Assembly (NCBI GenBank): GCA_043747875.1
Contig: JAYTOI010000037.1
Span: 30 to 64,029 of the forward strand
Origin: Pseudomonadota bacterium
GTDB taxonomy: Bacteria; Pseudomonadota; Gammaproteobacteria; Steroidobacterales; Steroidobacteraceae
Direction: 5' to 3'
Length of the DNA stretch: 64,000 bases
Part shown: in pieces, positions 1 through 46,301 of the stretch
Position numbering within the stretch: position 1 is the first letter of the stretch
Layout: every line of letters starts with the position of its first letter
Translations under genes and position numbers: made by a program
Notes under the pieces: model-generated
What the model was told of the DNA's origin: nothing
The model's input: the letters and a program-made list of their open reading frames with translations, nothing else
Database searches by the model: none

Positions 1-20
1 TCCGCCAGCGGCTCACTCAG

Positions 21-467
21 GTGGGCACAATCCGGGGAAACCGGGTGGTACTAATGCGGGAAATCCTGCAGCTGGCAACGCGCGCCAAGCCTGGCATGGG
101 TGAAGAGGCAGGAAATGCGCTCATGCAGAGCGCCCTATCGAAGACATTTGGCTCTACCATTCGCGAGCTCACAAAAGCAGGAAAGCTGCCGCCTGAATTG
201 GAAGTAAAAGTTAAGGAATTGCTGGCCGAACGGAACTGGCTCGTCCACGAGTCACGTGCAAGCAGCCGCAGTGCGGTGCGCAACGACGAATCATGTCTCT
301 CGGTGGTCAATAGAATAGATGCAATTGGCGACATGGCCTTGGTCCTGATGCGGCAGTTTGAGGCTCTCGTGGGTACGGTGGTCAAGTCATATGGCATTTC
401 TACTGATGATATCGACGCGCGGGCTGCGGAGCTGCTCCAAAAATGGCACGCCGGCAATGCGCTCTAA
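21..467 (+). CDS. Cassette protein, all-helical, HEPN-like R-x4-H motif (5' end may lie off-window)
   Basis: The ORF is open to the left edge. Motif AERNWLVHES (R-N-x3-H). The stop TAA lies inside attC 1 R''. Confidence 0.5.
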   Translation: MGTIRGNRVVLMREILQLATRAKPGMGEEAGNALMQSALSKTFGSTIRELTKAGKLPPELEVKVKELLAERNWLVHESRASSRSAVRNDESCLSVVNRIDAIGDMALVLMRQFEALVGTVVKSYGISTDDIDARAAELLQKWHAGNAL

Positions 468-550
468 CAAATCGCTGGAGCGGACGCGTGAAAGATAAAG
501 TGCCAAGTTCATACGTCGGCGTGCGCGCCGCTCAGCTCAACCGTTAGAGC
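461..550 (+). repeat. attC site 1
   Basis: gctctaac...ctggagcgg...ccgctcagctcaacc gttagag; matches the repeat consensus. Confidence 0.85.
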
Positions 551-552
551 GC

Positions 553-1086
553 ATGAGCACGCGCCCCGTCGAGGTCGACGCCTTCGCTCAATCGACCCGC
601 GATTTCCTCGCGTGGTGCGATCGTTCGCATGAAGGAAAATCCCCAGGCCCTTTTCGGCATGAAGCTCTTTTCTCGTTGTCAGTCATTTACACGGCCGCCC
701 TTTCTCTCCCTGGTGTCGAAGCGCGAGATACGCCCGACCCACCGTCGATGACGCCCGAAAAACGCTCCGCTATCGCCCGCAACCTCTCCAGCTTGCCCTT
801 TCAGTATTACTGGGAAATCTTTACTCCGTCAGACCTCGATGGAGACAAGGAGCCGGTGTGTGGGGACTTGTTCGATGACTTTCAGGATATTTACGGAGAC
901 CTTTCAACCGGGCTGTGGCTTTATGATCGTGGGCATGTCGAAACGGCGGCTTTCACATGGAATCTCATGTTCGGTGTTCATTGGGGACGTCACGCTGTGA
1001 GCGCCATGCACGCGCTCCACTCCTTTGATCCCGACGACGCCGAGATGCGCTCTAACAAATCGCTGGAGCGGACGCGTGAGGGATAA
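553..1086 (+). CDS. DUF5063-like cassette protein
   Basis: The C-terminal pattern DLFDDFQDIYGDLSTGLWLYDRG...AAFTWNLMFGVHWGRHAVSAMHALH matches my recollection of the DUF5063 signature. The last 11 aa are encoded by attC 2. Confidence 0.6.
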   Translation: MSTRPVEVDAFAQSTRDFLAWCDRSHEGKSPGPFRHEALFSLSVIYTAALSLPGVEARDTPDPPSMTPEKRSAIARNLSSLPFQYYWEIFTPSDLDGDKEPVCGDLFDDFQDIYGDLSTGLWLYDRGHVETAAFTWNLMFGVHWGRHAVSAMHALHSFDPDDAEMRSNKSLERTREG

Positions 1087-1138
1087 AGTGCCAAGCTCAG
1101 ACGCCCGCGCGCGCGCCGCTCAGCTCAACCGTTAGGCG
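1049..1138 (+). repeat. attC site 2
   Basis: gctctaac ... gttaggc; same 89-nt consensus. Confidence 0.85.
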
Positions 1139-1165
1139 GCACTCGGCGTTGGCGCTTGCTCCAAG

Positions 1166-1546
1166 ATGTACTTACGTTTCGTTCTCAAAGTGTTGGAAAG
1201 CGACTCAGGTTACCGCCGCGGGATCCTCGTTGCCGCTCACGAACTTCGCGACAACGGAGATTTGAGTGTCGAGGAACATCGCGAGATCCATGAAGCATTG
1301 GCATGGTTCAACGCAAACTTGAACCACCCATCCTGTCTTGCCGACCCGAGCAAACGTCGTGCCATTTCTTGGTTCAAGCCAGGTGCAGCCAAGCCAATAT
1401 CTAAAATGTGGGGGCTCAAAGCGATTCTCGAAAATCATGGGCATACTGTCGACGTGCACAAGACCGACGATCCTGGCATCGTTCCTTTCGAGGATGGCTG
1501 GCAAGTCGTCGCAAAGCCGCATAAGGGTGAGCGTGTGCCATGGTAA
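1166..1546 (+). CDS. Hypothetical cassette protein
   Basis: Single ORF filling the cassette between attC 2 and attC 3. Confidence 0.55.
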   Translation: MYLRFVLKVLESDSGYRRGILVAAHELRDNGDLSVEEHREIHEALAWFNANLNHPSCLADPSKRRAISWFKPGAAKPISKMWGLKAILENHGHTVDVHKTDDPGIVPFEDGWQVVAKPHKGERVPW

Positions 1547-1550
1547 TGCC

Positions 1551-1640
1551 GCCTAACAAATCTCTACGGAGCGGACGCGTGAGGGATAAAGTGCCAAGCC
1601 CAGACATCGGCGTGCGCGCCGCTCAGCTCAACCGTTAGGC
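1551..1640 (+). repeat. attC site 3
   Basis: gcctaac ... gttaggc. Confidence 0.85.
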
Positions 1641-1659
1641 GTCTCGAAGGAGCAGTCTC

Positions 1660-2022
1660 ATGAACGTTTTGCTCAAGATACTCATGATCGCAGTCGCAGC
1701 CTCAACACTCATATTCGCTGTGGTAGTGCTCGATAAGAAGATTGCCAAGATCTTGGAAGTTCGCTGGCAGTTGCTGGCTCGCTCTGCCCTGTACGCATTC
1801 GTGTTTACTCCAACTGCTTATCATTACGCGCCGAACACGATTGTGGCGCCACTACATCTCTCCACGATCGGCGGAAACCTGTTCTATGGCCACGACTACA
1901 CCTGGGGAATGTTTTCTTTTGGCGTGGCGTTGCCACTTTTGTGTGGGTGGGCCGCAATTCTGATTGTCTTGCTCTTCAGGTGGCAGTTGCCTGCACGGGC
2001 CGTGCAGGCGAGGGCCGAGTGA
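1660..2022 (+). CDS. Small membrane cassette protein (3-4 TM)
   Basis: Hydrophobic segments; single ORF in the cassette. Confidence 0.6.
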   Translation: MNVLLKILMIAVAASTLIFAVVVLDKKIAKILEVRWQLLARSALYAFVFTPTAYHYAPNTIVAPLHLSTIGGNLFYGHDYTWGMFSFGVALPLLCGWAAILIVLLFRWQLPARAVQARAE

Positions 2023-2029
2023 CCGAGAC

Positions 2030-2118
2030 GCCTAACAACTCGCTGGAGCGGACGCGTGAGGGATAAAGTGCCAAGCTCAGACGTCGGCGTGCGCGCCGCT
2101 CAGCTCAACCGTTAGGCG
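2030..2118 (+). repeat. attC site 4
   Basis: gcctaac ... gttaggc. Confidence 0.85.
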
Positions 2119-2127
2119 GTACGCGAC

Positions 2128-2532
2128 ATGGCCAACGGCTTCCACGGCCCACAGGCACAGTGGGAATCTCTTGAGACGCCGCTTCGAGCGTTAGACGCGG
2201 AGCTTCGATCCTTCGCGGAGCGCCACGGTGCAGCGCTCACGAGCAATAGCAGAAGCTGGCCGGATCGGTCGATCTTTTGGGGCAACTCCATTCGGCACCT
2301 AATCCAAATTTACCTAGCGGATGAAGTGCGTCTGACGTATAGCTTTTGGCTTTGTGCCCATGAGGATCGAGGCGGCAAACGGTACTTGAGGAAGCAATTC
2401 CTTAAGGAAGCGGTACCCATTATAGAAATAGCGGCTGACCTGCCGAATCTGTTAGAAGAGGGGCGGTTGTTACTGGAGGGATGGTCCAGTGAGACGTTGG
2501 AATTCGCTACAGAGCTGAGCCCGCATCCTTGA
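2128..2532 (+). CDS. Hypothetical cassette protein
   Basis: Single ORF in the cassette between attC 4 and attC 5. Confidence 0.55.
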   Translation: MANGFHGPQAQWESLETPLRALDAELRSFAERHGAALTSNSRSWPDRSIFWGNSIRHLIQIYLADEVRLTYSFWLCAHEDRGGKRYLRKQFLKEAVPIIEIAADLPNLLEEGRLLLEGWSSETLEFATELSPHP

Positions 2533-2538
2533 CGGCGC

Positions 2539-2627
2539 GCCTAACAAGTCGTTCGAGCAGACGCGTGTGGGATAAAGTGCCAAGTTCATACGTCGGCGTG
2601 CGCGCCGCTCAACTCAGTCGTTAGGTT
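2539..2627 (+). repeat. attC site 5
   Basis: gcctaac ... gttaggt; arms slightly diverged (gttcgagcag / ccgctcaactc). Confidence 0.8.
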
Positions 2628-2656
2628 GCTCCGAATTCTCCCCTGTACGGTTGGGG

Positions 2657-2686
2657 TTGCAATCTCCTATTTACCGTAGTTACACT
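2657..2686 (+). promoter_or_regulatory. Candidate sigma-70 promoter internal to the BrnTA cassette
   Basis: ttgcaa-N18-tacact ends 5 nt upstream of the brnT GTG. This implies a near-leaderless transcript. Confidence 0.3.
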
Positions 2687-2691
2687 AATTC

Positions 2692-2967
2692 GTGCGCATT
2701 ACCTTCGATCCAGCCAAGCGAGCTGCCACTCTGGAAGAGCGAGGGCTCGATTTCGCGGATACCGCTGAAGTATTCGATGGGATCACGGTTGAAGCGGAGG
2801 ACACGCGCAAGGACTACGGAGAGACGAGAATCATTTGTTTCGGCCTGTTGCGAGGCCGGCTTGTGCAGATCGTCTATACGTCGCGTGACGCTGGGCGTCA
2901 CATCATCAGTATGAGGAAAGCCAATGGCCGCGAAAAAGCGCGTCTCGCGCCGCTCCTTGGGATCTGA
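2692..2967 (+). CDS. brnT: BrnT-family type II toxin (DUF497)
   Basis: ITFDPAKRAATLEERGLDFADTAEVF...EDTRKDYGETRI...IISMRKANGREK fits the BrnT pattern. Overlaps the downstream antitoxin gene. Confidence 0.75.
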   Translation: MRITFDPAKRAATLEERGLDFADTAEVFDGITVEAEDTRKDYGETRIICFGLLRGRLVQIVYTSRDAGRHIISMRKANGREKARLAPLLGI

Positions 2968-3199
2968 TCTCAGGCGTGTCGACGAACACAGAATCAAGCC
3001 GCACGAGTACGTGGACGGCCCGTGCCTGACGTCCGAGATGCTCGGTCGCATGGTGGTGAAGAAGCGTGGGCGCCCAATTTCCGGCAATGCACGACGGCTT
3101 TTGACATTGCGTCTTCCGGTCGAGGTCATCGAACGATGGAAGGCCACTGGTCCTGGCTGGCAAACGCGCATGGCCGACCGTCTTAGTAAGACGCGCTAG
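2924..3199 (+). CDS. brnA: BrnA-family antitoxin
   Basis: KKRGRPISGNARRLLTLRLPVEVIERWKATGPGWQTRMADRL fits the BrnA antitoxin C-terminal pattern. 44-nt overlap with brnT. Confidence 0.7.
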   Translation: MAAKKRVSRRSLGSDLRRVDEHRIKPHEYVDGPCLTSEMLGRMVVKKRGRPISGNARRLLTLRLPVEVIERWKATGPGWQTRMADRLSKTR

Positions 3200-3203
3200 A
3201 GCA

Positions 3204-3292
3204 ACCTAACAAATCGCTGGAGCGGACGCGTGATAGATAAAGTGCCAAGCCCAATCGTCGGCGCGCGCGCCGCTCAGCTCCACCGTTAGTTG
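3204..3292 (+). repeat. attC site 6
   Basis: acctaac ... gttagtt. Confidence 0.8.
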
Positions 3293-3298
3293 GCCCTC

Positions 3299-3715
3299 AT
3301 GCGCCTCGCAAAGATACTCAGTTGGGTGGTATTCGCGCTACTTGTCTGCGCGATCGTCGCACAAGCGTATAGATTCTCGGGCACAGTGAGACCGTCGCAG
3401 CTGCTGCTATGGGTGCCAATGACGCTGGCGCTCTGGGTCTACTATCGACAAGCACCGGTTTGGCTCCGAATGACCGCCTTGCTCGCAAACGTGCTTTGGG
3501 CATTGCTAGGAGGCTTTCTTGTGTTCTGCGCCGTCGCCGGGCTTCTCGGTTGGCAGTACTTTGCAGTCGCAAGCCCGGTTGTCGTCATACCATTCGCGGT
3601 CGTTGTTCTACTTCTACCTGGCGCAATAAATGTCATGGCGTTGTGGGTCGGGGCGGCGCCGAAAAAGGTCTCCGCCGGGCCGCCTAACACCTCGCTGGAG
3701 CGGACGCGTGATTGA
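3299..3715 (+). CDS. Small membrane cassette protein (4 TM)
   Basis: Hydrophobic ORF. The C-terminal PPNTSLERTRD is encoded by attC 7. Confidence 0.6.
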   Translation: MRLAKILSWVVFALLVCAIVAQAYRFSGTVRPSQLLLWVPMTLALWVYYRQAPVWLRMTALLANVLWALLGGFLVFCAVAGLLGWQYFAVASPVVVIPFAVVVLLLPGAINVMALWVGAAPKKVSAGPPNTSLERTRD

Positions 3716-3771
3716 TAAAGCGTTCAAGCTCATACACCGGCGCGCGCGCCGCTCAGCTCCACCGTTAGGCG
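3682..3771 (+). repeat. attC site 7
   Basis: gcctaac ... gttaggc. Confidence 0.85.
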
Positions 3772-3780
3772 ACATCGATC

Positions 3781-4128
3781 ATGCTCCGCGCTTCGTTCAT
3801 CACCATAGACGAAGATCCCGATCTGATTGTCTCTTTCGGCCTCGAACCGAGTGACGCCAGATCACTCACGCTTATCCGCAGCCCCCATCTCGAGCATCTA
3901 ATTGCCGACGAGGATCGTGGGGTAACCGTTTCGTACTCCGGCGATACGTCAGGAGTCGTTCGCCTTCTTTTGACCGTAGACTGGTCAGATGAAACGGTCC
4001 GACTAGAAGCAACGAAACAGATATATGCTCTAAACGTTTCTGGGGTCGAGGCTGTAGAAATCGCCGAGGCTAAGCGTATTCTTTCCCTGATGAATGCTGA
4101 CGGTAGGTTCCGGTGCGATGTCGCCTAA
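3781..4128 (+). CDS. Hypothetical acidic cassette protein
   Basis: Single ORF. The stop TAA lies in attC 8 R''. Confidence 0.55.
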   Translation: MLRASFITIDEDPDLIVSFGLEPSDARSLTLIRSPHLEHLIADEDRGVTVSYSGDTSGVVRLLLTVDWSDETVRLEATKQIYALNVSGVEAVEIAEAKRILSLMNADGRFRCDVA

Positions 4129-4211
4129 CAAATCGTTGGAGCGGACGCGTGAACGATAAAGTGCCAAGCCCATACTTCGGCGCGCGCGCCGCTCAGCTCA
4201 ATCGTTAGACG
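4123..4211 (+). repeat. attC site 8
   Basis: gcctaac ... gttagac. Confidence 0.85.
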
Positions 4212-4215
4212 GCTC

Positions 4216-4530
4216 TCAGCGTTTCGCGATGATCTTCGCCAGCTCACGATTCGAAGTGCCAAGCGCGAGTAGCGACTTCACCAGCAGATCCAATGACACG
4301 GTCGGATCGCCAGCTTCCATTTTGGCCACACGAGACTGACTTGAGCGCAACGACTGTGCCAGCTGGCTTTGGGTTACTCCCCGCGACTGGCGCCTGGACT
4401 TCAATCCATCCGCAAGTCGCAAGCGCAGGTCGATGAATGCTTCCTCTTGGTCACTCAGTCCTAGGAAGTCCTTGGCATCGCCAACCCGCCAACCCTTTTC
4501 AGCCAGTTTCTTTCGCCTACTTTCGCGCAC
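4216..4530 (-). CDS. XRE-family HTH antitoxin (HigA-like)
   Basis: GVTQSQLAQSLRSSQSRVAKMEAG HTH motif. Overlaps the upstream toxin gene by 14 nt. Confidence 0.75.
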   Translation of the reverse strand: MRESRRKKLAEKGWRVGDAKDFLGLSDQEEAFIDLRLRLADGLKSRRQSRGVTQSQLAQSLRSSQSRVAKMEAGDPTVSLDLLVKSLLALGTSNRELAKIIAKR

Positions 4531-4855
4531 GGTCGTACTCCTTAAATCGCTTCTTACACGTATCTATGACCGCTTTCGGAGTAGCCCGACTCTTCTTTGC
4601 GAAGACTTCCACGATCACAATGGCATCCCTATCGATCCGCAACACCAGCCGCCAATTGCCCGTGGTGTCGTTTACCCGCAGCTCGTGGCACCTAGCTCCG
4701 ATTGATGGCATCGGGCGCGAAGCTGGCATTTCAAGCAAATCACCACGTTGCAGGCGCCTTAGAAGAAACCCCGCTTCGATGCGCCCTTCTTTTGAGAAGG
4801 GTGGCGACTTAACTTCGCCATGCAACCACACCAATGGCTTGTGCTTCGAGCTCAC
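4517..4855 (-). CDS. RelE/HigB-superfamily toxin (phage Gp49-like, DUF891 type)
   Basis: KPLVWLHGEVKSPPFS...IGARCHELRVND..GNWRLVLRID.DAIVIVEVFAKKSRATPK fits the Gp49/HigB-like pattern. GTG start. Confidence 0.7.
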   Translation of the reverse strand: MSSKHKPLVWLHGEVKSPPFSKEGRIEAGFLLRRLQRGDLLEMPASRPMPSIGARCHELRVNDTTGNWRLVLRIDRDAIVIVEVFAKKSRATPKAVIDTCKKRFKEYDRARK

Positions 4856-4865
4856 GGGGCGCAGT

Positions 4866-4885
4866 ATATGTCAGAATGGACATAT
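4866..4885 (-). promoter_or_regulatory. Palindromic operator overlapping a -10-like box of the inverted TA cassette
   Basis: Perfect inverted repeat atatgtc-N6-gacatat. On the minus strand tatact lies 7 nt upstream of the toxin GTG. Confidence 0.45.
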
Positions 4886-4895
4886 GCGAAAGAGC

Positions 4896-4985
4896 CGACT
4901 AACAAATCGCTGGAGCGGACGCGTGAAGGATAAAGTGCCAAGCTCAAGCGCCGGCGCGCGCGCCGCTCAGCTCAACCGTCAGGCG
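4896..4985 (+). repeat. attC site 9
   Basis: cgactaac ... gtcaggc. Confidence 0.8.
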
Positions 4986-5086
4986 GCAGTCATTGGCAAC
5001 GTAAGTCGAATGACTACGTTCTCCCATGAATCGCGCAGCGAGGATGCGTCGCTGCAAATCTGGACCGCAACACATAGGATTGCCGA

Positions 5087-5536
5087 ATGAACACCAGTGT
5101 CAAGTTTTCGCAGGCCTTTTCGTGGAAAACTGTTGGATTCTGGCTGGTGCTCGCGATGGCGCTCCTACAGTTGTTCTATTCGTGCTTTGCCTTCGCAAGC
5201 CCGATTGAGTTTGCTAGCTATCGGGGCAGCAAACTGGGCCACGACACGGAGTGGGTGCGCATCTACGCTTCTCGCACGCTATTCGTGGCGTTGGTGCTTG
5301 GACTCTTGCTATCGCTTCAAGAGATTGCTCTTCTTCGGTGGATTTCCGTGCTCGGAATTGTCATGCCACTTAGCGATGCTGTCCTGGCATATCAAAGCTC
5401 TGCACCATCTTCGATAATCGCGAGGCACCTAGCAACAATCATCTATCTTTTTCTAACCGTGGGGGTCTTGACCTACTGGCTAAAACGCAACCGGCGGCCG
5501 CCTAACACCTCGCTGGAGCGGGCGCGTGAGGGATAA
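5087..5536 (+). CDS. Small membrane cassette protein (4 TM)
   Basis: Hydrophobic ORF; attC 10-encoded tail PPNTSLERAREG. Confidence 0.6.
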   Translation: MNTSVKFSQAFSWKTVGFWLVLAMALLQLFYSCFAFASPIEFASYRGSKLGHDTEWVRIYASRTLFVALVLGLLLSLQEIALLRWISVLGIVMPLSDAVLAYQSSAPSSIIARHLATIIYLFLTVGVLTYWLKRNRRPPNTSLERAREG

Positions 5537-5588
5537 AGTGCCAAGCTCAGACCGCGGCGCGCGCGCCGCTCAGCTCAACCGTTAAGCG
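5500..5588 (+). repeat. attC site 10
   Basis: gcctaac ... gttaagc. Confidence 0.85.
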
Positions 5589-5602
5589 GGAGGAGAACCG
5601 TC

Positions 5603-6037: not shown

Positions 6038-6120
6038 CACCTCGTTCGAGCGGACGCGTGAGGGATAAAGTGCCAAGCTCATACAGCTACGCGCGCGCCG
6101 CTCAGCTCAACCGTTAGGCG
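6032..6120 (+). repeat. attC site 11
   Basis: gcctaac ... gttaggc. Confidence 0.85.
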
Positions 6121-6122
6121 AC

Positions 6123-6434
6123 ATGAGCACAGTAGCCAACAAAACACGCGCCCAGCGAAACCTGCGGGTTGCGGGCGCAATTGGTCTCCCTTTAGCAGTA
6201 ATGGCCCTATACCTCATTGCTTCCAGGGCGCCATTCCAAAGGATGCCTCCTCCTTGGAGCGACTACATCGGCTTTGGAGTCGCGCTAGTTTCTGGTGCCT
6301 ATTGTGTCTGGAAGCTAGTTCCACACGTGGGGTGGCGCACGCTGGCATTACTTGCTTACGCTCTCGGCTGCGCTGGGTTCTTGTTCATCTTCTCGCTCAT
6401 CTTTGTATGCTCCGCTTTTGGGGACTGTTTGTGA
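6123..6434 (+). CDS. Small membrane cassette protein (3 TM)
   Basis: Hydrophobic ORF starting 3 nt after attC 11. Confidence 0.6.
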   Translation: MSTVANKTRAQRNLRVAGAIGLPLAVMALYLIASRAPFQRMPPPWSDYIGFGVALVSGAYCVWKLVPHVGWRTLALLAYALGCAGFLFIFSLIFVCSAFGDCL

Positions 6435-6452
6435 GATGTCTTCCTGCATGTC

Positions 6453-6541
6453 GCCTAACACATCGCTCGAGCGGACGCGTGAGGGATAAAGTGCCAAGCT
6501 CATACATCGGCGCGCGTGCCGCTCAGCTCAGCCGTTAGGCG
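6453..6541 (+). repeat. attC site 12
   Basis: gcctaac ... gttaggc. Confidence 0.85.
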
Positions 6542-6549
6542 GCATAGAA

Positions 6550-7011
6550 ATGTACTCGCATCGCCAAGCAGCGTGGCGTAGCGCCTGGGCGGTCGGTGCC
6601 ACTGTTCTGCCCTTTCTCGTGGTCTATCTGTGGGGAATGCTTCAACCAGGCGCAGCGTCGCCGGTCTTGCCCTGCGTTGTCGCTTTGGCAGTGATTGGCG
6701 TGCTCGCGGTGGTGCTCGCCACTGCATTCGGTCTCGGGTTTCGCCTTTCCGCCCGCAAGACGGTCGGAATCGCTGTGATGGTGGCCACAGCAGCTGCGTA
6801 TTTGGTCCCGCTCGCGCTGCTGTCGTTCATTCCTATCGAAACTCACGCTGTGGCGGTGGCCTTTCCAACTACACCCGACCAAGCTCAGCGCGCATCTGTC
6901 ATGTCAGTCTTGGTGCCAGTGAGCGCAGTCACCCTCGTGCTCTTTGCTTTTCCGCTTGGAGTTTCATTCGTGGCAGCTCGCCTCATCAGGGGAGGTGCCA
7001 ATGCCGCCTAA
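6550..7011 (+). CDS. Small membrane cassette protein (4 TM)
   Basis: Hydrophobic ORF; stop TAA in attC 13 R''. Confidence 0.6.
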   Translation: MYSHRQAAWRSAWAVGATVLPFLVVYLWGMLQPGAASPVLPCVVALAVIGVLAVVLATAFGLGFRLSARKTVGIAVMVATAAAYLVPLALLSFIPIETHAVAVAFPTTPDQAQRASVMSVLVPVSAVTLVLFAFPLGVSFVAARLIRGGANAA

Positions 7012-7094
7012 CTCCTCGCTGGAGCGCACGCGTGAATGTTAAAGTGCCAAGTCCGACCCGCCGCAGCCGCGCCGCTCAGCTCGACCAATAGGTG
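7006..7094 (+). repeat. attC site 13 (degenerate R')
   Basis: gcctaac ... aataggt; central part conserved (gtgaatgttaaagtgccaag). Confidence 0.7.
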
Positions 7095-7098
7095 TCAG

Positions 7099-7527
7099 AT
7101 GGATGTTCGCGAGATTCACACGTCAGAGATCGAAGAAGCCCGTCGCCTTTTGTTTGAGAACGGTTGGGGACATAGGGTGGCCGACCCGAAGCTGTTCAGC
7201 CTGCTCGTCTCAAAATCGCAGCGTGCAGTGGTCGCGGTTGAAGGTGGCAAGGTCATAGGCTTTGCTCGCGCCATTTGCGACGATCTCTCCAATGGGTACC
7301 TCTCGATGGTCGTAGTCGACCCCGCCCATCGTCGCCAGGGCGTGGGGCGGGCGCTAGTGCGTGCTGTCATGGGTGACAATCAGCTCATTACCTGGGTACT
7401 TCGCGCAGGACGTCCAGAGGAACTGCCATTCTTTGCGCGTTTGGGGTTTGTCCCGTCGAGCGTCGCAATGGAGCGCAATCGTGCCGCTAGCCCTGACACT
7501 CAACAAATCGCTGGAGCGAACGCGTGA
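7099..7527 (+). CDS. GNAT-family N-acetyltransferase (cassette)
   Basis: VVDPAHRRQGVGRALV acetyl-CoA-binding motif. The ATG lies just after attC 13. Confidence 0.7.
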   Translation: MDVREIHTSEIEEARRLLFENGWGHRVADPKLFSLLVSKSQRAVVAVEGGKVIGFARAICDDLSNGYLSMVVVDPAHRRQGVGRALVRAVMGDNQLITWVLRAGRPEELPFFARLGFVPSSVAMERNRAASPDTQQIAGANA

Positions 7528-7586
7528 AAGACAAAGTACCAAGATCAGACGCCGGCGCGCGCGGCGCTCAGCTCAACCGTTATGCG
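7498..7586 (+). repeat. attC site 14
   Basis: actcaac ... gttatgc. Confidence 0.75.
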
Positions 7587-7610
7587 GCCCTCTAGCGCTG
7601 CCGTCGTTCC

Positions 7611-8012
7611 ATGAGCGTCGTGGCGGCCGTCGTAGTTGCCGCATTCAGCCTCTCCCTCATCGCATTCACTGGCGTGGCCTTTGCAAAGCCGGCGACCGCC
7701 GAGCGATTTTTGAGCGCTTTCGCGAGTTCAGCGCGAACGCACTACCTAGAGCAGGCTTTGCGCTTGCTCGCCGGGGCGGCGCTCGTCGTACTTTCGCCAA
7801 CTATGTGGCAACCGAAGATGTTCTGGCTCTTTGGGTGGGGCATTGTCGTTAGCTCGACACTGTTGCTGTGCATTCCGTGGCAGTGGCACCATCGGTTGGG
7901 AGAGCGGGTACTACCGCTGCTCGTTCGACATCTCAAACTGTACGCTGTCGCGTCATTCACACTCGGCGCACTGCTGCTTTACGGAGCTTTTGTCGGTGGT
8001 CGAGCCGCATGA
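7611..8012 (+). CDS. Small membrane cassette protein (4 TM)
   Basis: Hydrophobic ORF; stop TGA within the attC 15 R''-like gcatgac. Confidence 0.6.
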   Translation: MSVVAAVVVAAFSLSLIAFTGVAFAKPATAERFLSAFASSARTHYLEQALRLLAGAALVVLSPTMWQPKMFWLFGWGIVVSSTLLLCIPWQWHHRLGERVLPLLVRHLKLYAVASFTLGALLLYGAFVGGRAA

Positions 8013-8095
8013 CAAATCGCTGGAGCGCACGCGTGGGGGATAAAGTGCCAAGCCCAAATCGCCGCAGCGGCGCCGCTCAGCTCGACTGTTAGGTC
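8007..8095 (+). repeat. attC site 15
   Basis: gcatgac ... gttaggt. Confidence 0.75.
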
Positions 8096-8111
8096 TCGGC
8101 CCGTTTGCATC

Positions 8112-8612
8112 GTGCACATCCGCGCCGAGAATCCCGTCGATGCTGCTGCCATCTCGGAGCTGGTTGAACGGGCGTTCGCTTCCGGCCCCCACAGCAATGG
8201 CTGTGAGCAGTCCATCGTTCTGGAACTGCGCAGGGCCGGTGCGCTGACGGTTTCGTTGGTGGCCGTAGAGGCCGGCCAACTACTGGGACACATTGCCTTC
8301 TCGCCGGTGTCAGTGACGGATCGCTCACAGCGTTGGTACGGTCTCGGCCCTGTTGCAGTCGAGCCGTCAGTGCAGCGAACTGGAATTGGCTCGGCCCTCG
8401 TCAAAGCGGGACTCGGCCAGCTTCAGGATCTCGGCGCCGCAGGCTGCGTAGTGTTGGGAGAACCTGAATACTACGGACGATTCGGGTTCGTTCAAATTGC
8501 CAGCCTGAGGTACCCGGGACCGCCGCCGGAGTGCTTCATGGCGCAGCCCTTTGGTGAACTGGTTCCAATTGGCGAGGTTTCGTACCATGCCGCATTCGCC
8601 GCCGAGGCCTAA
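8112..8612 (+). CDS. YhbS-like GNAT N-acetyltransferase (cassette)
   Basis: Collinear with my recollection of E. coli YhbS (HIAFSPV...W.GLGP.AV.P..Q..GIG..LV..GL..L...G....VVLG.P.YY.RFGF). Confidence 0.7.
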   Translation: MHIRAENPVDAAAISELVERAFASGPHSNGCEQSIVLELRRAGALTVSLVAVEAGQLLGHIAFSPVSVTDRSQRWYGLGPVAVEPSVQRTGIGSALVKAGLGQLQDLGAAGCVVLGEPEYYGRFGFVQIASLRYPGPPPECFMAQPFGELVPIGEVSYHAAFAAEA

Positions 8613-8695
8613 CAGCTCGCTGGAGCGCGCGCGGGAGGGGTAAAGTGTCAAGCGCATTCAGCAGCGCGCGCGCTGCTCAGCTCAACTGTTAAACG
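8607..8695 (+). repeat. attC site 16
   Basis: gcctaac ... gttaaac. Confidence 0.8.
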
Positions 8696-8697
8696 CT

Positions 8698-9237
8698 ATG
8701 GGAACGCCTCCTTATCGCGCTATCGTAATTGCTCTCACGGCGGGCTTTCTCTGCGTCCGCTGTGGAGCGGGGTATCCGCCGCCGGATGGATACATTGCGG
8801 CCTGCTATGGCGGCGACTTTCGCGCGAACCTCATGAAAGGCGAACCGCTCAAATTTCAGATGCGTGTTGCGGGAGACGAATCGAAGTGGCCTGAGCTCCG
8901 AACACGCCTTATCAAAGTAGCAGCCTCACATGATCTCGAGATTTTCGACACAAGCATGGCGCCGGCGGGCCTCCGATTGTTCGAGGTGAGCCTTTGCAGC
9001 AAAAAAGGACTCTGGGTGTACGCCGATAAGAGGATCTGGGAAAAAGGCCCGGCCGATCACGAGCCAAGCATCGTCCCAATCATGCTTTACCAGTACAACG
9101 ACACGTATGAATGGAGGCCTATCGCCTCGGCACTAACGGCGGCGTTTGAAGACTGGCCGGGGAAAGTCGAGGGCAAATATCTCGAACCGGCGGTGACTGC
9201 GCCTGACAAAGCGCTGGAACGCACGCGTGCAAGATAA
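8698..9237 (+). CDS. Hypothetical cassette protein with N-terminal hydrophobic/lipoprotein-like segment
   Basis: Single ORF; attC 17-encoded tail PDKALERTRAR. Confidence 0.55.
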   Translation: MGTPPYRAIVIALTAGFLCVRCGAGYPPPDGYIAACYGGDFRANLMKGEPLKFQMRVAGDESKWPELRTRLIKVAASHDLEIFDTSMAPAGLRLFEVSLCSKKGLWVYADKRIWEKGPADHEPSIVPIMLYQYNDTYEWRPIASALTAAFEDWPGKVEGKYLEPAVTAPDKALERTRAR

Positions 9238-9289
9238 AGTGCCAAGTTCATGCAGCCTGGCGCGCGCCGCTCAGCTCATCCGCTAGAAC
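9201..9289 (+). repeat. attC site 17 (diverged cores)
   Basis: gcctgac ... gctagaa; centre conserved (aagataaagtgccaag). Confidence 0.7.
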
Positions 9290-9580
9290 GTGCTCGTGAG
9301 TCGCGTTCTACCCAAAGATCGAAACGACCGCGAAGTAAGCGTCGGCTCACGTGTGCGCGTTCTTTCGCTTTCGAAATCTTTCATGGACTCCTTACCAGCG
9401 GATGAACGAGACGACGTTACATCGATGGTTGGTCAAGTTTTCGTAGTACACGAAGTGGATGAGCACGGATTGCCCTGGGTCGAGAAAGGCTGGCACTCTG
9501 AGTCAGAAGAGAGGTACAGAAGTCATTCCCTGGCTTTAAGCCCGGCCGAACTGGAGGTCGTGGATGATGTCGCGGTCTAA
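9290..9580 (+). CDS. Hypothetical small acidic cassette protein
   Basis: Single ORF in the shortest cassette. GTG start; stop TAA in attC 18 R''. Confidence 0.5.
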   Translation: MLVSRVLPKDRNDREVSVGSRVRVLSLSKSFMDSLPADERDDVTSMVGQVFVVHEVDEHGLPWVEKGWHSESEERYRSHSLALSPAELEVVDDVAV

Positions 9581-9663
9581 CTAATCTCTGGCGCGGACGC
9601 GCGAAAGATAATGTGCCAAGCCCAAACATCTGCGCGCGCGACGCTCAGCTCAACCATTGGACG
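9575..9663 (+). repeat. attC site 18 (diverged R')
   Basis: gtctaac ... attggac; centre gaaagataatgtgccaag. Confidence 0.7.
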
Positions 9664-9666
9664 GCA

Positions 9667-10161
9667 ATGCAACACCGCACGACTCTAAGGTACACGGAAC
9701 GGCTCGTCGGTCGGGCGGTGCACCTGTATTGGCGCAAGACGGTCGGATTCGGTCTTCCTGTGGCTGGCGCACTCATGATCGCCTTCCTCACCTGGCGGCT
9801 CATTGACGGCGATCGTTCGTGGGTCGTCGGGCTGATAGCCGCGGTGGTCCTGCTCGGGGTGCTCATGCCGGTGGCCGTGTACGTCGTCCACTATCGCAAC
9901 TCCATGGGAAAATTCAGGGAAATGGCTCAGCCTGTCGCGGAACTGGTGGCAGACCAGGACGCGATCACCATCACGTCGGATCGAGGCACCAGCTCGCTCA
10001 AATGGGAGCTTGTGAAGGAAGTGTGGCGCTTTGAAACACTGTGGCTGCTTCTCTTCTCTAAATCTCAATTCGTGACCTTGCCGCTCGAAGATCTTCCAGG
10101 CTCGATGCAGGCATTCATACTCGAGCGTATCAAGGCGTCTGGCGGCAAGATTGCCGTCTGA
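9667..10161 (+). CDS. YcxB-like membrane cassette protein (2 TM + C-terminal domain)
   Basis: Two adjacent TM helices followed by a ~90-aa soluble domain, an architecture resembling the YcxB family. Confidence 0.5.
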   Translation: MQHRTTLRYTERLVGRAVHLYWRKTVGFGLPVAGALMIAFLTWRLIDGDRSWVVGLIAAVVLLGVLMPVAVYVVHYRNSMGKFREMAQPVAELVADQDAITITSDRGTSSLKWELVKEVWRFETLWLLLFSKSQFVTLPLEDLPGSMQAFILERIKASGGKIAV

Positions 10162-10241
10162 TAAATATCTGGAGCGGACGCGTGGGGGATAAAGTGCCAA
10201 GCTCATACCGAAGCGCGCGGCGCTCAGGTCACCGTTGGTGG
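10156..10241 (+). repeat. attC site 19 (diverged R'')
   Basis: gtctgat ... gttggtg; centre ggggataaagtgccaag. Confidence 0.7.
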
Positions 10242-10252
10242 CAACTAGACTG

Positions 10253-10756
10253 ATGTCGGCCGTGCGCAAATTCTTTCCCACCCGGCGTCCCGGTCCGCGC
10301 TGGGGCGTCGCCATTGCGTGCGGGCTTGGCCTGGTCGGCGCTGGCGCCCTTTTCAGTGGCAGCTTGGAGCTCCCTTTGGTTCGAAACGCGCTCGTCCTCA
10401 TCTGCATTCCGTTGGTAACCGCGGGGCTTTTCGCTCTTTTCGGCAAGGCCGTTCCGGTCGAGGCTACTCCCGAGGGCGTTATCGCGAGTCGGGGTGGCGG
10501 ACTGCGTACACGTCTGGTTCACTGGCGAGAAATCAAACGGGTGGTCGCCACGACGCGAAATGGCACACCTATATTGATACTTGTTCACGACAGTCCCTTT
10601 CCAGAGGATTTGAGCATGCTCATGCATCTGGACGACGTTTCGGAGTTTCGCGCGTTCGTTACACGTCATGCTGGCGAGCAACATCCACTCTCGCTTTGGT
10701 TAGCCGACGCGGAGCAGGCGTCTAACAAAACTCTGGAGCGCGCGCGTGCAACATAA
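10253..10756 (+). CDS. Membrane cassette protein (2-3 TM + soluble C-terminal domain)
   Basis: Hydrophobic N-terminal half; attC 20-encoded tail SNKTLERARAT. Confidence 0.55.
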   Translation: MSAVRKFFPTRRPGPRWGVAIACGLGLVGAGALFSGSLELPLVRNALVLICIPLVTAGLFALFGKAVPVEATPEGVIASRGGGLRTRLVHWREIKRVVATTRNGTPILILVHDSPFPEDLSMLMHLDDVSEFRAFVTRHAGEQHPLSLWLADAEQASNKTLERARAT

Positions 10757-10808
10757 AGTGCCAAACCCATACTGCAGCGCGCGCGGCGCTCAGCTCGGCC
10801 GTTGAGCG
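10720..10808 (+). repeat. attC site 20
   Basis: gtctaac ... gttgagc. Confidence 0.75.
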
Positions 10809-10869
10809 TCGCTTGGGCGCGGCTCGCCTCATCGCGGTGCGGAAGATCCGGAATCCGGAAGTCGCAGCT

Positions 10870-11274
10870 ATGGCAAGTGAAGCAGCGACCTTTGTCGAAG
10901 CTCACTCATGGTGCCGAGCCGTGATCGAGACGAAGCTGGCTTGAGCGGTCGCGGGCATAGTGGGCGTCTTTCACGCGCGCATTGATTCAAGCGATCCAGG
11001 GATCGACCCGGTACTTTGGGTTGTGGTGGGCGATCTCCCATCTGCATGCCTGATGCTCGACGGCAACTCTTCATGGCGTGAAGTTTTGGCCGCGTACGTT
11101 CGAGAGATGAATTTGTGGGTGGGCGCAGTGCGCATGGGCGGCAGCCTTGCCGAAGTCATCCCGGTCGCCGCCGCTCCAACAAGGGAGAATGCCGAGGCGT
11201 TGGCGTCGCGCCTCGCGTACATTCAAACCGAAATGCTCGCGGCGGATGCCGAAGCGATTGACAGTGACACCTAA
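10870..11274 (+). pseudogene. Cassette gene interrupted by an in-frame TGA (DUF4826-like?)
   Basis: ATG 10870 and the 10960..11274 ORF share one frame, separated only by TGA at 10942-10944. The downstream part reads VLWVVVGDLPSACLMLDG. Confidence 0.45.
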
Positions 11275-11309
11275 AAAATCGCGGCGGCGCTCAGCTCAAC
11301 CGTCAGGCG
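11269..11309 (+). repeat. attC site 21 (internally deleted, ~41 nt)
   Basis: acctaaaaaatcgcggcggcgctcagctcaaccgtcaggc keeps both ends of the consensus but lacks the central ~48 nt. Confidence 0.55.
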
Positions 11310-11311
11310 GC

Positions 11312-11638
11312 ATGATGGGTACGCGCAAGTATCCGGAGCCGAATGACTCGCCACTGCGCCGCGATGTCTCGCGGGCGATTACCCTTAGAGGTAAACGAGC
11401 CGCGAGCCTGCGCCTGAGCCTCTCGAAGGCGGAGTGGTTTCAACCATCTGAGACGAACGACAAGCTTTGGGTGAAGTGGTTCTGTTGGCGCCTTTTGTCG
11501 AAGAACGGCCACAATGTCACGAGTCCAAAATACGGGATATTGCATGGCGGCCTTTCGAAGCGCGTACTGGAGCGCTCCCTGTGCGGATGGTTTCCGAACC
11601 ACCGGTGCGTCATTGACGATGAAATTTCACTTTCTTAG
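11312..11638 (+). CDS. Hypothetical cassette protein (last full cassette)
   Basis: The ATG lies 3 nt after attC 21 and the ORF ends just before attC 22. Third positions are only moderately GC-rich. Confidence 0.4.
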   Translation: MMGTRKYPEPNDSPLRRDVSRAITLRGKRAASLRLSLSKAEWFQPSETNDKLWVKWFCWRLLSKNGHNVTSPKYGILHGGLSKRVLERSLCGWFPNHRCVIDDEISLS

Positions 11639-11644
11639 CTTGCC

Positions 11645-11733
11645 GCTTGACGAATCGCTGTAGCGCACACGTGGGAGATAAAGCGCCAGGTTCAAACCGC
11701 CGCCGCCGCGGCGCACAGCCCAACCGTCAGGAG
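11645..11733 (+). repeat. attC site 22 (most diverged, last full-length copy)
   Basis: gcttgacgaatcgctgtagcgcacacgtgggagataaagcgccagg...cccaaccgtcagga is collinear with the consensus. Confidence 0.6.
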
Positions 11734-11860
11734 GTTCGCACATGCCAGCGCAATTGCTGTTGTTCGGGAAAATGCCGAACTTGATCCACTCGCGGGGGCC
11801 GATCGCGAAGAAGTGTTTCAACACGACAGTGGCCGCTTCCGCGGAAGCCGCGCAGAGTCA

Positions 11861-11892
11861 GGCGTGAAAGACAAAGCGCGCAGTCATCGCCA
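11861..11892 (+). repeat. attC half-site fragment abutting the first core gene
   Basis: ggcgtgaaagacaaagcgcgcagtcatcgcc shares the 15-mer gcgtgaaagacaaag with attC 14. No R'' or R' core is recognisable. Confidence 0.4.
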
Positions 11893-11901
11893 TCGAAAAG
11901 C

Positions 11902-12294: not shown

Positions 12295-12334
12295 TGTTGG
12301 CGCACATGGCAAATCAGGACCGCGAGGGGCCATC

Positions 12335-14621: not shown

Positions 14622-14765
14622 CGGGCGAAACTCGGAGGGCGGGCGGGGCCGAGAGTGTAGGGGCTGCGGCGCGGAATGCACGGCTTTCTGCGGGGTTTAT
14701 GTCCGCCGGCGCGACACGGTGCAGGCATTTCGCGACAGGAGCCGACGTCGTAGTCTTGGAGCTAC

Positions 14766-37426: not shown

Positions 37427-37430
37427 CACG

Positions 37431-46288: not shown

Positions 46289-46301
46289 AGAGTCTCGTAC
46301 A

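Follow-up and report, generated by a model that had tools for sequence, protein, structure and literature searches.

What element do the short repeats at the left end of this locus belong to, and where is its integrase encoded? In the window, that is, the whole stretch of 64,000 nucleotides that was analysed, positions 1-11732 are read, with a probability of about 0.93, as a chromosomal array of integron-type gene cassettes, a well-known kind of element, of which the body and the distal end are covered. The anatomy of the attC sites, the crossover footprint, the polarity, the chromosomal context and the sharing of cassettes with other arrays all speak for this reading, as does the tie of the same 88-nt attC family to genuine IntI genes in relatives.

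Repeat finding, motif searches and an unfiltered scan with a covariance model trained on the array copies themselves agree on 22 copies of the repeat on the + strand, spanning 462-11732, which is the number given in the initial annotation. One motif search returned 23 matches where 2.1 were expected by chance, and the other 20 where 0.01 were expected. Among the 21 full-length copies, 18 measure 88 nt and one each 85, 89 and 90 nt, so the length of ~89 nt first proposed has to be corrected to 88 nt; the last copy (11269-11308, +) is cut down to 40 nt. Cassettes, measured as the distance between successive crossover points, are 374-774 bp long, very near the earlier estimate of about 370-780 bp. 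The window does open inside a cassette, as had been noted, and the ~24 cassettes announced come down to 21 complete ones plus one partial, cassette 0, cut at the window start. Each copy comes after an ORF, one copy per ORF end; this placement had been correctly described, but the description of every such ORF as lying on the + strand fails for cassette 8 (4205-4978), whose genes are on the minus strand. The array and the adjoining chromosome are laid out as follows.

1-11732, +: whole cassette array, 22 attC sites; 11732 is the distal (old) end.
1-543, +: cassette 0, 5' end off-window; ORF 123-467 (open from 3), no family, its stop codon being the TAA of R''; attC 462-549.
544-1131, +: cassette 1, 588 bp; DUF5063 ORF 553-1086, running into the attC and ending at the loop TAA; attC 1050-1137.
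1132-1634, +: cassette 2, 503 bp; ORF 1166-1546, no family; attC 1551-1640 (90 nt).
1635-2111, +: cassette 3, 477 bp; ORF 1660-2022, no family, hydrophobic product, probably membrane-spanning; attC 2030-2117.
2112-2620, +: cassette 4, 509 bp; ORF 2128-2532, no family; attC 2539-2626.
2621-3285, +: cassette 5, 665 bp; BrnT toxin 2692-2967 and BrnA antitoxin 2924-3199 (PF04365 at 2e-20, PF14384 at 5e-10); attC 3204-3291.
3286-3764, +: cassette 6, 479 bp; ORF 3299-3715, into the attC, hydrophobic product, probably membrane-spanning; attC 3682-3770 (89 nt), loop motif altered.
3765-4204, +: cassette 7, 440 bp; ORF 3781-4128, no family; attC 4123-4210.
4205-4978, +: cassette 8, 774 bp; minus-strand toxin-antitoxin pair (Gp49/HigB-like 4517-4855, HTH antitoxin 4216-4530) with its own promoter-like site, 4890-4863 (-); attC 4897-4984.
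4979-5581, +: cassette 9, 603 bp; DUF4267 ORF 5087-5536, into the attC; attC 5500-5587.
5582-6113, +: cassette 10, 532 bp; ORF 5603-6037, hydrophobic product, probably membrane-spanning; attC 6032-6119.
6114-6534, +: cassette 11, 421 bp; ORF 6123-6434, hydrophobic product, probably membrane-spanning; attC 6453-6540.
6535-7087, +: cassette 12, 553 bp; ORF 6550-7011, hydrophobic product, probably membrane-spanning; attC 7006-7093, R' AATAGGT (GTT lost).
7088-7579, +: cassette 13, 492 bp; GNAT acetyltransferase 7099-7527; attC 7498-7585.
7580-8088, +: cassette 14, 509 bp; ORF 7611-8012, hydrophobic product, probably membrane-spanning; attC 8007-8094.
8089-8688, +: cassette 15, 600 bp; GNAT acetyltransferase 8112-8612; attC 8607-8694.
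8689-9282, +: cassette 16, 594 bp; ORF 8698-9237, no family, into the attC; attC 9201-9288, R' GCTAGAA (GTT lost).
9283-9656, +: cassette 17, 374 bp; ORF 9290-9580, no family; attC 9575-9662, R' ATTGGAC (GTT lost).
9657-10234, +: cassette 18, 578 bp; YcxB-like ORF 9667-10161; attC 10156-10240 (85 nt).
10235-10801, +: cassette 19, 567 bp; ORF 10253-10756, no family, into the attC; attC 10720-10807.
10802-11302, +: cassette 20, 501 bp; ORF 10960-11274, no family; 40-nt attC 11269-11308, centre deleted, 21 bits with the covariance model.
11303-11726, +: cassette 21, the last, 424 bp; ORF 11312-11638, no family; attC 11645-11732, the most eroded of the full-length copies.
11733-12754, +: chromosome without cassettes past the array, G+C up to 0.66.
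11742-11867, +: small 41-aa ORF in this chromosome.
11902-12294, +: glyoxalase-fold gene, likewise beyond the array.
12335-12754, +: DUF1801 gene, likewise beyond the array.
12798-14681, -: DeaD helicase gene, next after the DUF1801 gene.

The repeats are true attC sites of an integron and delimit mobile cassettes; their boxes, spacer, unpaired-base geometry and crossover phase signature support the architecture initially annotated. The core types RYYYAAC and GTTRRRY had been properly recognized, with a strict fit in 14/22 copies for R'' (GCCTAAC in 10/22) and in 12/22 for R', but the description of the latter as mostly GTTAGGC was generous, this sequence occurring in only 6/22. The triplets AAC and GTT are kept in 17 and 16 of the 22 copies, respectively. 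The inner arms CTGGAGCGG / CCGCTCAG are complementary apart from one extra base, as already observed, and a second extra base is now added 6 bp further in (A on the top, T on the bottom strand). The bottom-strand fold, which the initial annotation had proposed to look for, comprises an R stem, an unpaired central spacer of 6/5 nt and an L stem, in which position 16 and a T at position 23 stay unpaired on either side of a 6-bp stem. Position 16 is a C in most copies and a G, the usual base, in 3. In the alignment of the copies, 85.5% of the pair cells are paired; sliding the partner columns lowers this to 26-45%. This fold matches the unpaired spacer, extrahelical bases and R/L stems by which attC sites are defined (PMC5027507). 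The array has one unusual feature: attC loops are usually described as variable, whereas the loop of ~36 nt contains here a near-invariant 14-nt motif that is better conserved than the recombination boxes. An Rfam search with the repeat gave no match, RNAalifold alone did not recover the full hairpin, and single-sequence fold energies were no better than those of shuffles (z from -1.9 to +1.5). Covariation was not significant in the shuffle control because the attC copies are too alike.

The outer bases of the R boxes of contiguous attCs come from different cassettes. In each attC, the 6 outer bases of R'' correspond to the reverse-complemented outer bases of the preceding R', where the same cassette starts. 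The mean match is 5.05/6 within the same cassette, whereas the contiguous R' gives 3.52 and all other pairs give 3.48; this match was reached by 0/20,000 permutations. This phase signature is the footprint of an IntI crossover at G|TT.

The array is also polar, with intact attCs on the left and eroded ones on the right. Identity to the consensus of other genomes drops from 0.94 to 0.77 from left to right (rho -0.89, p 3e-8); the leftmost 12 attCs have identities of 0.86-0.97 to the family consensus, with GTT intact in 11/12, and among the distal ones GTT is gone in three and one is truncated. The R''->R' orientation first proposed, which places the insertion end on the left, is therefore correct, and it agrees with the relatives, where all full-length intI genes (11/11) are located upstream of the attC top strand and read divergently from it.

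The G+C content of the array is 0.55-0.60, versus 0.66 in the flanking chromosome, and the neighbouring gene content is that of an ordinary chromosome. Family searches of the cassette ORFs agree with the earlier statement that most of their proteins have no recognisable family. The content (BrnTA, an inverted HigBA-like pair, two GNAT acetyltransferases, DUFs and many ORFs without family match whose products are hydrophobic and probably span the membrane) is typical of chromosomal arrays. Promoter-like sites were not found on the + strand of the array, nor T-run terminators at the repeats. Eight cassettes have homologues with 36-83% amino acid identity in the arrays of other genomes; most of these matches lie at most ~60 nt from an attC, the attC-nearest ORF being within a few nt. 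Homologous cassettes were found for the BrnT/BrnA pair of cassette 5 (L064, L091) and for the HigB-like/HTH pair of cassette 8 (L084, L085), together with homologues of cassettes 10 (74%, within an array of L041), 11 (76%, L107), 14 (70%, L104) and 20 (52%, L071), and of the YcxB-like cassette 18 (77%) within the intI-linked array of L007.

The sole trace of an integrase within the window is tied to a solo attC near 37 kb, separate from the main array.

36908-37053, -: decayed, frameshifted integron-integrase gene fragment.
37125-37517, +: solo cassette, left boundary guessed (A|TTAGAC); lipoprotein-like ORF 37134-37426, then attC 37431-37517.
37546-37604, +: degenerate second attC remnant, L'/R' half only (16 bits, E 0.04).

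The fragment covers residues about 240-290, including HxLRH of box II, the N-terminal two-thirds being gone. Its frameshift-corrected 61-aa peptide matches only two integron-integrase models, TIGR02249 (E 1.3e-6) and PRK15417 (E 3.6e-6), of 18,950 NCBIfam families. The solo attC scores 72 bits with the covariance model and is 71% identical to the array copies. The window holds a second, dead integron platform at ~37 kb. The scattering that the initial annotation associated with REP/MITE behaviour is not seen, the 52 kb of chromosome outside the array containing this solo copy and the remnant only.

With 22 attCs, the array exceeds the operational threshold of >19 attCs for the sedentary class (PMC4889954), and the mean pairwise identity of 0.79 among them fits the sedentary type first assigned. 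A Vibrio VCR or an aadA-like Xanthomonas attC type is rejected by sequence; the array represents a distinct 88-nt family. Like the Vibrio cholerae superintegron, it is a long chromosomal array of small promoterless cassettes of mostly unknown function, with closely similar attCs, toxin-antitoxin cassettes and a G+C content below that of the host. The VCRs, however, are ~120-130 nt long and unrelated in sequence, VCR2 has three unpaired bases (G16, T20, T24) instead of two (16, mostly C, and 23), no intI or attI is visible here, and the host, an uncultured soil-type member of the Pseudomonadota, has a high G+C content. The integrons of Xanthomonas and other Xanthomonadales share high-G+C Gammaproteobacteria-type genomes and frequent intI inactivation, but their intI lies beside ilvD, whereas the platform site differs among the present relatives (nasA-adjacent in the window, radical-SAM-adjacent in L109, after GH97 in L062). 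'Xanthomonadales-like' attCs are reportedly short, aadA-like and ~60 nt long, in contrast to the 88 nt and the conserved loop motif observed here. The attC_aadA7 site, the archetype with two extrahelical bases, also measures ~60 nt, versus 88 nt, and has a G at position 16 where the array has mostly C. It nevertheless shares the R''/R' cores with AAC/GTT, a spacer of 5-6 nt per arm, and two unpaired bases, 16 and 23, that flank a 6-bp stem in the arm opposite the bottom-strand AAC (PMC5027507). About 50% of Xanthomonas genomes have extra integrase-less arrays at several loci (bioRxiv 10.1101/2025.06.18.660453). Such attC clusters without a nearby intI, or CALINs (PMC4889954; bioRxiv 10.1101/2022.09.11.507474), are the majority pattern of the 88-nt family in the relatives; the head of the main array lies off-window. 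The single-attC class (SALIN) accommodates the solo attC at 37.4 kb, which, however, adjoins an intI relic and is therefore no simple secondary-site insertion.

Could the repeat be instead a REP/MITE-like or terminator-like palindrome that spread by itself, unrelated to integrase-mediated cassettes? It is indeed an imperfect palindrome, and solo copies exist, one in the window and many in related 8-kb blocks with a single attC match. This candidate was rejected and is considered extremely improbable, because the phase signature in R'' is predicted only by the G|TT crossover of circular cassettes. The repeats have moreover a single orientation throughout with one copy per ORF end, the canonical unpaired-base geometry, a physical link, in a constant relative orientation, to genuine IntI genes and no T-run terminators, and the solo copy of the window adjoins the intI relic.

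For the main array, neither intI nor attI nor Pc is seen in the window or in the 70 bp further left, where the only public contig with this sequence begins, within cassette 0; a metagenome scan for the left flank found nothing. In the relatives, the attC covariance model gave 496 matches in 100 blocks. We infer that an IntI would still act on the main array, and also where it would be encoded. The array may be a complete sedentary chromosomal integron with intI, attI and Pc immediately left of position 1, as initially annotated. The orientation rule (11/11), the most intact attCs on the left, as expected beside an active attI, and a size above the 19-attC class (PMC4889954) are consistent with this, as are the large arrays of the same family headed by genuine intI in L007/L101 and L021/L029; 6/6 IntI homologues scored against TIGR02249 pass, at 450-480 bits (cut-off 265). 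That the left head directly carries an intact or decayed intI is nevertheless regarded as possible but rather doubtful. Only 13/48 visible array starts in relatives have an IntI-like match, and among the arrays with a visible start and three or more attCs only 2/15 do, the L007 array being a 16th, IntI-positive one left outside this count, its start too near the block edge. Five large arrays directly abut GH3, PadR, HDOD, LysR, rhomboid or M61 peptidase genes at their start, and decay of intI is common in the family, as in L005, L057, L082, L106, L109, L111 and L115 and in the relic at ~37 kb. A large CALIN, orphaned by intI loss or rearrangement or created by secondary-site insertion, and either mobilised solely in trans, by an IntI from another locus, or fossil, is considered somewhat probable. 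Most arrays of the 88-nt family in relatives are CALINs starting against ordinary genes, several related genomes have arrays on 3-5 separate contigs or loci, and both the dead platform and the eroded distal attCs point the same way. Precedents reach 114 attCs (PMC4889954) and are multi-locus in Xanthomonas (bioRxiv 10.1101/2025.06.18.660453), although only 6.6% of RefSeq CALINs exceed 10 attCs (PMC4889954), the state of the left 12 attCs suggests recent activity, and the array runs on beyond the window, its head unseen.

In the integron-type array, each cassette unit consists of an 88-nt attC preceded by a promoterless ORF or by a toxin-antitoxin pair that drives its own expression. The bottom-strand hairpin of this attC would be recognised by the integron integrase, a TIGR02249-type tyrosine recombinase, which cuts the R' core between G and TT. 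Recombination between two attCs would excise the cassette as a circle, and recombination between attC and attI would re-insert it at the array head, left of the window. Such head insertion would therefore make the array polar, its attCs being young and intact towards the left end but eroded, and in part no longer able to recombine, towards the right, and the two toxin-antitoxin cassettes would probably stabilise it.

A repeat of about 88 nt is found 22 times in the window between positions 462 and 11732, always on the + strand, which agrees with the 22 recurrences reported in the initial annotation. The 21 full-length copies measure 85-90 nt, and the remaining one (11269-11308) is reduced to 40 nt by the loss of its centre. 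Two conserved stretches, used as probes, produced 23 and 20 matches, against 2.1 and 0.01 expected by chance. With the crossover point placed at the G of the R' core, the repeats delimit 21 complete cassettes of 374-774 bp and one more cut by the window start; the array described earlier is real and its cassette lengths (370-780 bp) were well estimated, but the figure of about 24 cassettes was slightly high. The array attCs are homogeneous (mean pairwise identity 0.79), and the G+C content of the array is 0.55-0.60 versus 0.66 in the rest of the window. The DNA to its right is ordinary chromosome with housekeeping genes: glyoxalase-fold, DUF1801, DeaD, pseudouridine synthase, radical-SAM and HrpA-like helicase genes are followed, further right, by nitrite and nitrate reductase genes, GH97 and others. 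A second patch of low G+C content (0.59-0.60 versus 0.66) is visible at 42000-48000. It carries a PAS histidine kinase, a TonB-dependent receptor and ORFs of no recognised family, no attC was found in it, and it may be another acquired island.

The repeats had been called attC sites, and this call is confirmed by three independent lines of evidence: the anatomy of the bottom strand, a crossover footprint and the distribution of the copies. Read from 5' to 3', the bottom strand consists of GCCTAAC, GGTTGA, GCTG AGCGG CGCG, the loop, CGCG T CCGCT C CAGC, GATTT and GTTAGGC. When individual copies are folded as single-strand DNA, an internal loop separates the R stem from an L stem in which two bases bulge out. 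The hairpin was specified by hand because RNAalifold returned only hairpin fragments on the 22 bottom strands; on the 22-copy alignment it is 85.5% paired (91.6% for the L helix), against 26-45% when the partner columns are shifted by 1-3 positions. The published criteria that define attC sites (PMC5027507) give position 16 as "usually a G" and 23/24 as a conserved T, with 6 bp of stem between them, 5-6 nt of spacer and a total length of 57-141 nt. The window copies possess the R stem, an unpaired spacer of 5-6 nt per arm, the L stem and the terminal loop, and their 85-90 nt lie within this length range. The bulged bases, counted from the 3' end inward, are position 16 and T23; a 6-bp stem separates them and the spacer is 6/5 nt, a two-bulge geometry that matches that of attC_aadA7. 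Most array copies have both T23 and the 6-bp stem. Position 16 is unpaired and is a C in most copies and a G in three of them (2539-2626, 6032-6119 and 6453-6540), the C for G being a deviation in base identity only. The outer cores are less uniform than the earlier reading of mostly GCCTAAC and GTTAGGC suggested: among the 22 copies these exact forms occur 10 times and only 6 times, respectively. A strict RYYYAAC (R'') is retained in 14/22 copies and its AAC in 17/22, a strict GTTRRRY (R') in 12/22 and its GTT in 16/22, and the departures are concentrated in the eroded distal half of the array.

Fold energy alone is no evidence here, since the single-sequence energies of the attCs are no better than those of shuffled sequences, and the high similarity of the copies leaves little covariation among the window attCs. 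Rfam 15 at gathering thresholds matched no RNA family, tRNA included, over the whole 64-kb window. A sigma-54 -24/-12 reading of TGGCAC in the loop of the bottom strand did not survive inspection, as no TTGC lies at the right spacing.

The crossover footprint concerns the junctions between successive cassettes. If the cut is made between the G and the TT of R', the bases after the G would belong to the next cassette and would pair with its own R''. Compared with the reverse complement of the preceding attC's R' tail, the six outer bases of R'' agree at 5.05 of 6 positions, versus 3.52/6 for the contiguous R' and 3.48/6 for all other pairs; the observed total was reached by 0 of 20,000 permutations. 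Such a cassette-phase footprint is not predicted for a palindromic repeat that spreads on its own. The covariance model, run with filters off over the whole 64 kb, returned the 22 array copies and, outside the array, one copy and a weak remnant only; it was built from the array's own copies and is not an independent test of attC identity. A dispersed repeat of the REP/MITE type is ruled out by the lack of scatter outside the array and by the recombinase-type junction signature: 52 kb of sequence hold one solo copy and the remnant, on the same strand, after an ORF and beside an intI relic. From attC anatomy and crossover footprint, an integron mechanism is inferred with high confidence, and the array is a true cassette array of integron type and sedentary size. 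Its 22 chromosomal attCs place it in the operational class of sedentary chromosomal integrons (>19 attC sites, or presence in all genomes of a species; PMC4889954), a class that formally presupposes an intI.

The solo copy belongs to a small platform at about 37 kb, bordered by a nitrate-reductase gene on one side and an alpha/beta-hydrolase/GH97 pair on the other:

36908-37053, - strand, decayed C-terminal intI fragment, frameshifted, immediately left of the solo cassette
37134-37426, + strand, lipoprotein-like ORF of 97 aa, upstream of the solo attC
37431-37517, + strand, solo attC (covariance model match 37428-37520, 72 bits)
37546-37604, + strand, degenerate second attC, L'/R' half (weak covariance model match 37546-37602)

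The best window matches of a tblastn search with five IntI queries fall on this fragment (E 0.002 and 0.027). A profile of nine IntI proteins likewise placed there its two best of 1,259 six-frame segments, colinear and in two frames: RRTTPRTGAWRRHHLHD aligns to profile positions 245-264, and QSVQRVVRDAVRRAARRAAPCHALLDRHGLGT, which contains box II HxLRH, to positions 262-292. The frameshift-corrected peptide of 61 aa matches only 2 of 18,950 NCBIfam models, both named 'integron integrase' (TIGR02249, E 1.3e-6; PRK15417, E 3.6e-6). The relic is a decayed intI deprived of its N-terminal two-thirds and fused to one cassette, a dead mini-integron, and it shows that integron platforms do decay in the source genome. 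The relic is not the integrase of the main array, because it lies 25 kb to the right with housekeeping genes between, in the same orientation; a derivation of the main array from this platform by simple deletion was rejected on the same grounds.

The attC family extends well beyond this genome. With GCGTGNNNGATAAAGTGCCAAG as probe and each species represented by one genome, more than 116 blocks of 8 kb were matched, and the attC model detected 496 attCs in 100 of them, many scoring as high as the window copies. Among the matches listed, most belong to MAGs from soil or freshwater that bear the label Steroidobacteraceae, Lysobacteraceae or 'uncultured (gamma)proteobacterium', and several related genomes have arrays on 3-5 contigs. 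Single matches fall in MAGs of other phyla: near-identical attCs, often above 100 bits and some by an intI, were seen in MAGs labelled Pirellulales, Holophagales, Pyrinomonadaceae, Actinomycetota, cyanobacteria, Thermoanaerobaculaceae and Nitrospira (blocks L022, L046, L079, L081, L088, L099, L111 and others). These occurrences reflect either broad soil cassette exchange or binning contamination. The related loci contain 11 full-length IntI homologues, 50-63% identical to an IntI1 query that served as a lead only. All six homologues that were scored pass the NCBIfam model TIGR02249 'integron integrase' (450-480 bits versus a cut-off of 265); an ORF from block L022 matched no NCBIfam family, probably because the wrong frame was taken. 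The closest housekeeping matches to the window, among the matches listed, share 75-80% nucleotide identity (blocks L109, L062 and L043). In L109, the closest relative by its radical-SAM gene (108-1375, against window 17275-19739), an attC and weak IntI-like fragments adjoin that gene, a locus different from the 37-kb one. In L062 (331-5381, against window 39331-41187), an array of six attCs directly follows the GH97 orthologue. The position of integron platforms is not conserved among the nearest relatives.

No intact intI was found anywhere in the 64-kb window, the right side of the array included. The head of the array, where an attI site and a Pc promoter would be expected, lies left of the window; for attI, we know of no general sequence model. 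Two explanations are roughly equally likely: a complete integron with its intI at the left head, or an integrase-less attC cluster (CALIN). The initial annotation had argued that the R'' to R' orientation places the insertion end on the left, and this argument is sound, since in 11/11 relative loci with a full-length gene the intI lies upstream of the attC top strand, on the opposite strand. This rule, which holds whenever an intI exists, speaks for a complete integron. The orientation is reinforced by the polarity of the array itself: the identity of the window attCs to the consensus of other genomes declines from 0.94 at the left to 0.77 at the right (Spearman -0.89, p 3e-8), and the distal attCs include three without GTT and one truncated. 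A comparable gradient exists in one intI-headed array (L101+L007, rho -0.59) and is absent from the intI-headed L021+L029 and from the CALIN L036+L107; the polarity therefore speaks for the orientation and says nothing on whether an intI is present.

The base rate among related arrays is in favour of a CALIN, defined as at least 2 attC sites with no intI nearby (4 kb) (PMC4889954), an attC number that the array amply provides. When an array start is counted as visible if 3 kb or more of the sequence upstream is free of attCs, an IntI-like match, in several cases a fragment, occurs at 13/48 such starts in the related blocks, and at 2/15 of the related arrays with at least 3 attCs; L007 is a further positive whose start is too close to the block edge to be counted. 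Five large arrays with up to at least 23 attCs (L036+L107, L110, L045, L071 and L102) start directly against GH3, PadR, MMPL, HDOD, LysR, rhomboid or M61 peptidase genes, and no extra attC or recombinase was found upstream of them; these are CALINs as defined in PMC4889954. Integrase-less arrays have been reported also in about half of Xanthomonas genomes (bioRxiv 10.1101/2025.06.18.660453). The only matched public contig that starts left of the window is ENA contig ERZ27315222 k141_1297219 (55,159 bp), which begins 70 bp beyond the window edge, still inside cassette 0, the cassette cut by the window start. It was retrieved by exact-protein look-ups with NasA, DUF1801, BrnA and the cassette-0 ORF, which also matched a 5.6-kb Logan contig; look-ups for cassettes 1 and 2 gave no match, and a 40-mer from the left end had 0 matches among metagenome contigs. 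Taken together, we put at about 0.4 the probability that an intact or decayed intI sits directly at the array head.

The array contains about 24 ORFs, whose families were assigned by Pfam as follows:

553-1086, + strand, DUF5063
2692-3199, + strand, BrnT/BrnA toxin-antitoxin pair
4216-4855, - strand, Gp49/HigB-like toxin and HTH antitoxin
5087-5536, + strand, DUF4267
7099-7527, + strand, GNAT acetyltransferase
8112-8612, + strand, GNAT acetyltransferase
9667-10161, + strand, YcxB-like protein

Thirteen of the ORFs have no recognisable family, in line with the earlier remark that this is the case of most cassette proteins. Many of their products are probably membrane-spanning, as judged by eye from hydrophobic sequences, and PADLOC matched no defence system among ten of them. 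Eight cassettes have homologues (36-83% aa identity) in the arrays of other genomes, most of them no more than about 60 nt away from an attC. For the matching ENA contig, the public annotation predicts a 217-aa protein at window 4437-5090 (+); this call is probably spurious, being antisense to the minus-strand toxin-antitoxin pair and running straight through an attC. A promoter-like site (4890-4863) lies just upstream of this same pair. The promoter scan found no + strand site in the array, which agrees with the expectation for promoterless cassettes, and the scan for promoters and terminators revealed no enrichment. The stop codon is supplied by the attC for 15/21 cassette ORFs of the + strand. 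Nine stop at the TAA/TGA of R'', and six run about 10 codons into the attC (with C-terminal tails such as SLERTREG), four of them to the loop TAA and two to a TGA that lies within the conserved ACGCGTG or directly behind it. All three frames meet a stop in the 5' half of the attC, which has a TAA in R'', a TGA in ACGCGTGA and a TAA in GATAAAGTGCCAAG.

The last of these elements, the 14-nt GATAAAGTGCCAAG, is located in the terminal loop, a part of attC sites normally described as highly variable (PMC8352920, PMC4889954). Across 323 attCs from 31 multi-attC blocks of soil MAGs, its conservation reaches at least 90% in each column, a figure somewhat inflated by the choice of blocks with at least one exact motif; the same pattern is seen in the window, whose choice did not depend on the motif. 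The exact motif is present in 57% of the 323 attCs, versus 33-46% for the R'', R', L'' and L' cores, and the three bases before it and about 10 after it vary freely. A full-text literature search for the motif strings returned no relevant paper. The GTG position of the motif is GTG, ATG or TTG in 94% of copies, and it opens a mini-ORF of 15 codons whose stop is precisely the TAG/TAA of R' in 86% of the family copies (268/311) and in 15/20 window copies (494-11732), 5-35 nt before the start codon of the next cassette. The openness of this frame is itself uninformative, all three frames being stop-free over 40 nt (303, 298 and 283 of 311). The motif may be a three-frame stop module. It may instead combine an SD-like purine run with the GTG of the mini-ORF, whose translation would unwind the hairpin for the next start codon, and more generally it may be a translational-coupling device or a host-factor binding site. 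That the 88-nt attC family carries a second, sequence-specific function in its loop is a putative and rather improbable proposal.

As a large chromosomal cassette array of an uncultured, soil-type bacterium with high G+C content, the array is a well-characterised case, and its 13 cassette proteins of no known family constitute a compact reservoir of small proteins. The 88-nt attC family is distinct and widespread in soil MAGs, and the integron type itself is well known. The distribution of this family over dozens of such MAGs, mostly integrase-less, at varied loci and with many decayed intI, is relevant to how cassette pools are maintained and spread once the integrase is missing or dead. The attC and IntI of a block such as L059 (IntI at 1490-2452) or L021 (IntI at 3883-4842) also make up a defined experimental pair. 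The loop motif stands out as a concrete, testable oddity, and nothing in these results alters the known picture of integrons; if its second function were true, then together with the multi-locus integrase-less arrays it would point to a distinct soil cassette system, and not just to another attC flavour.
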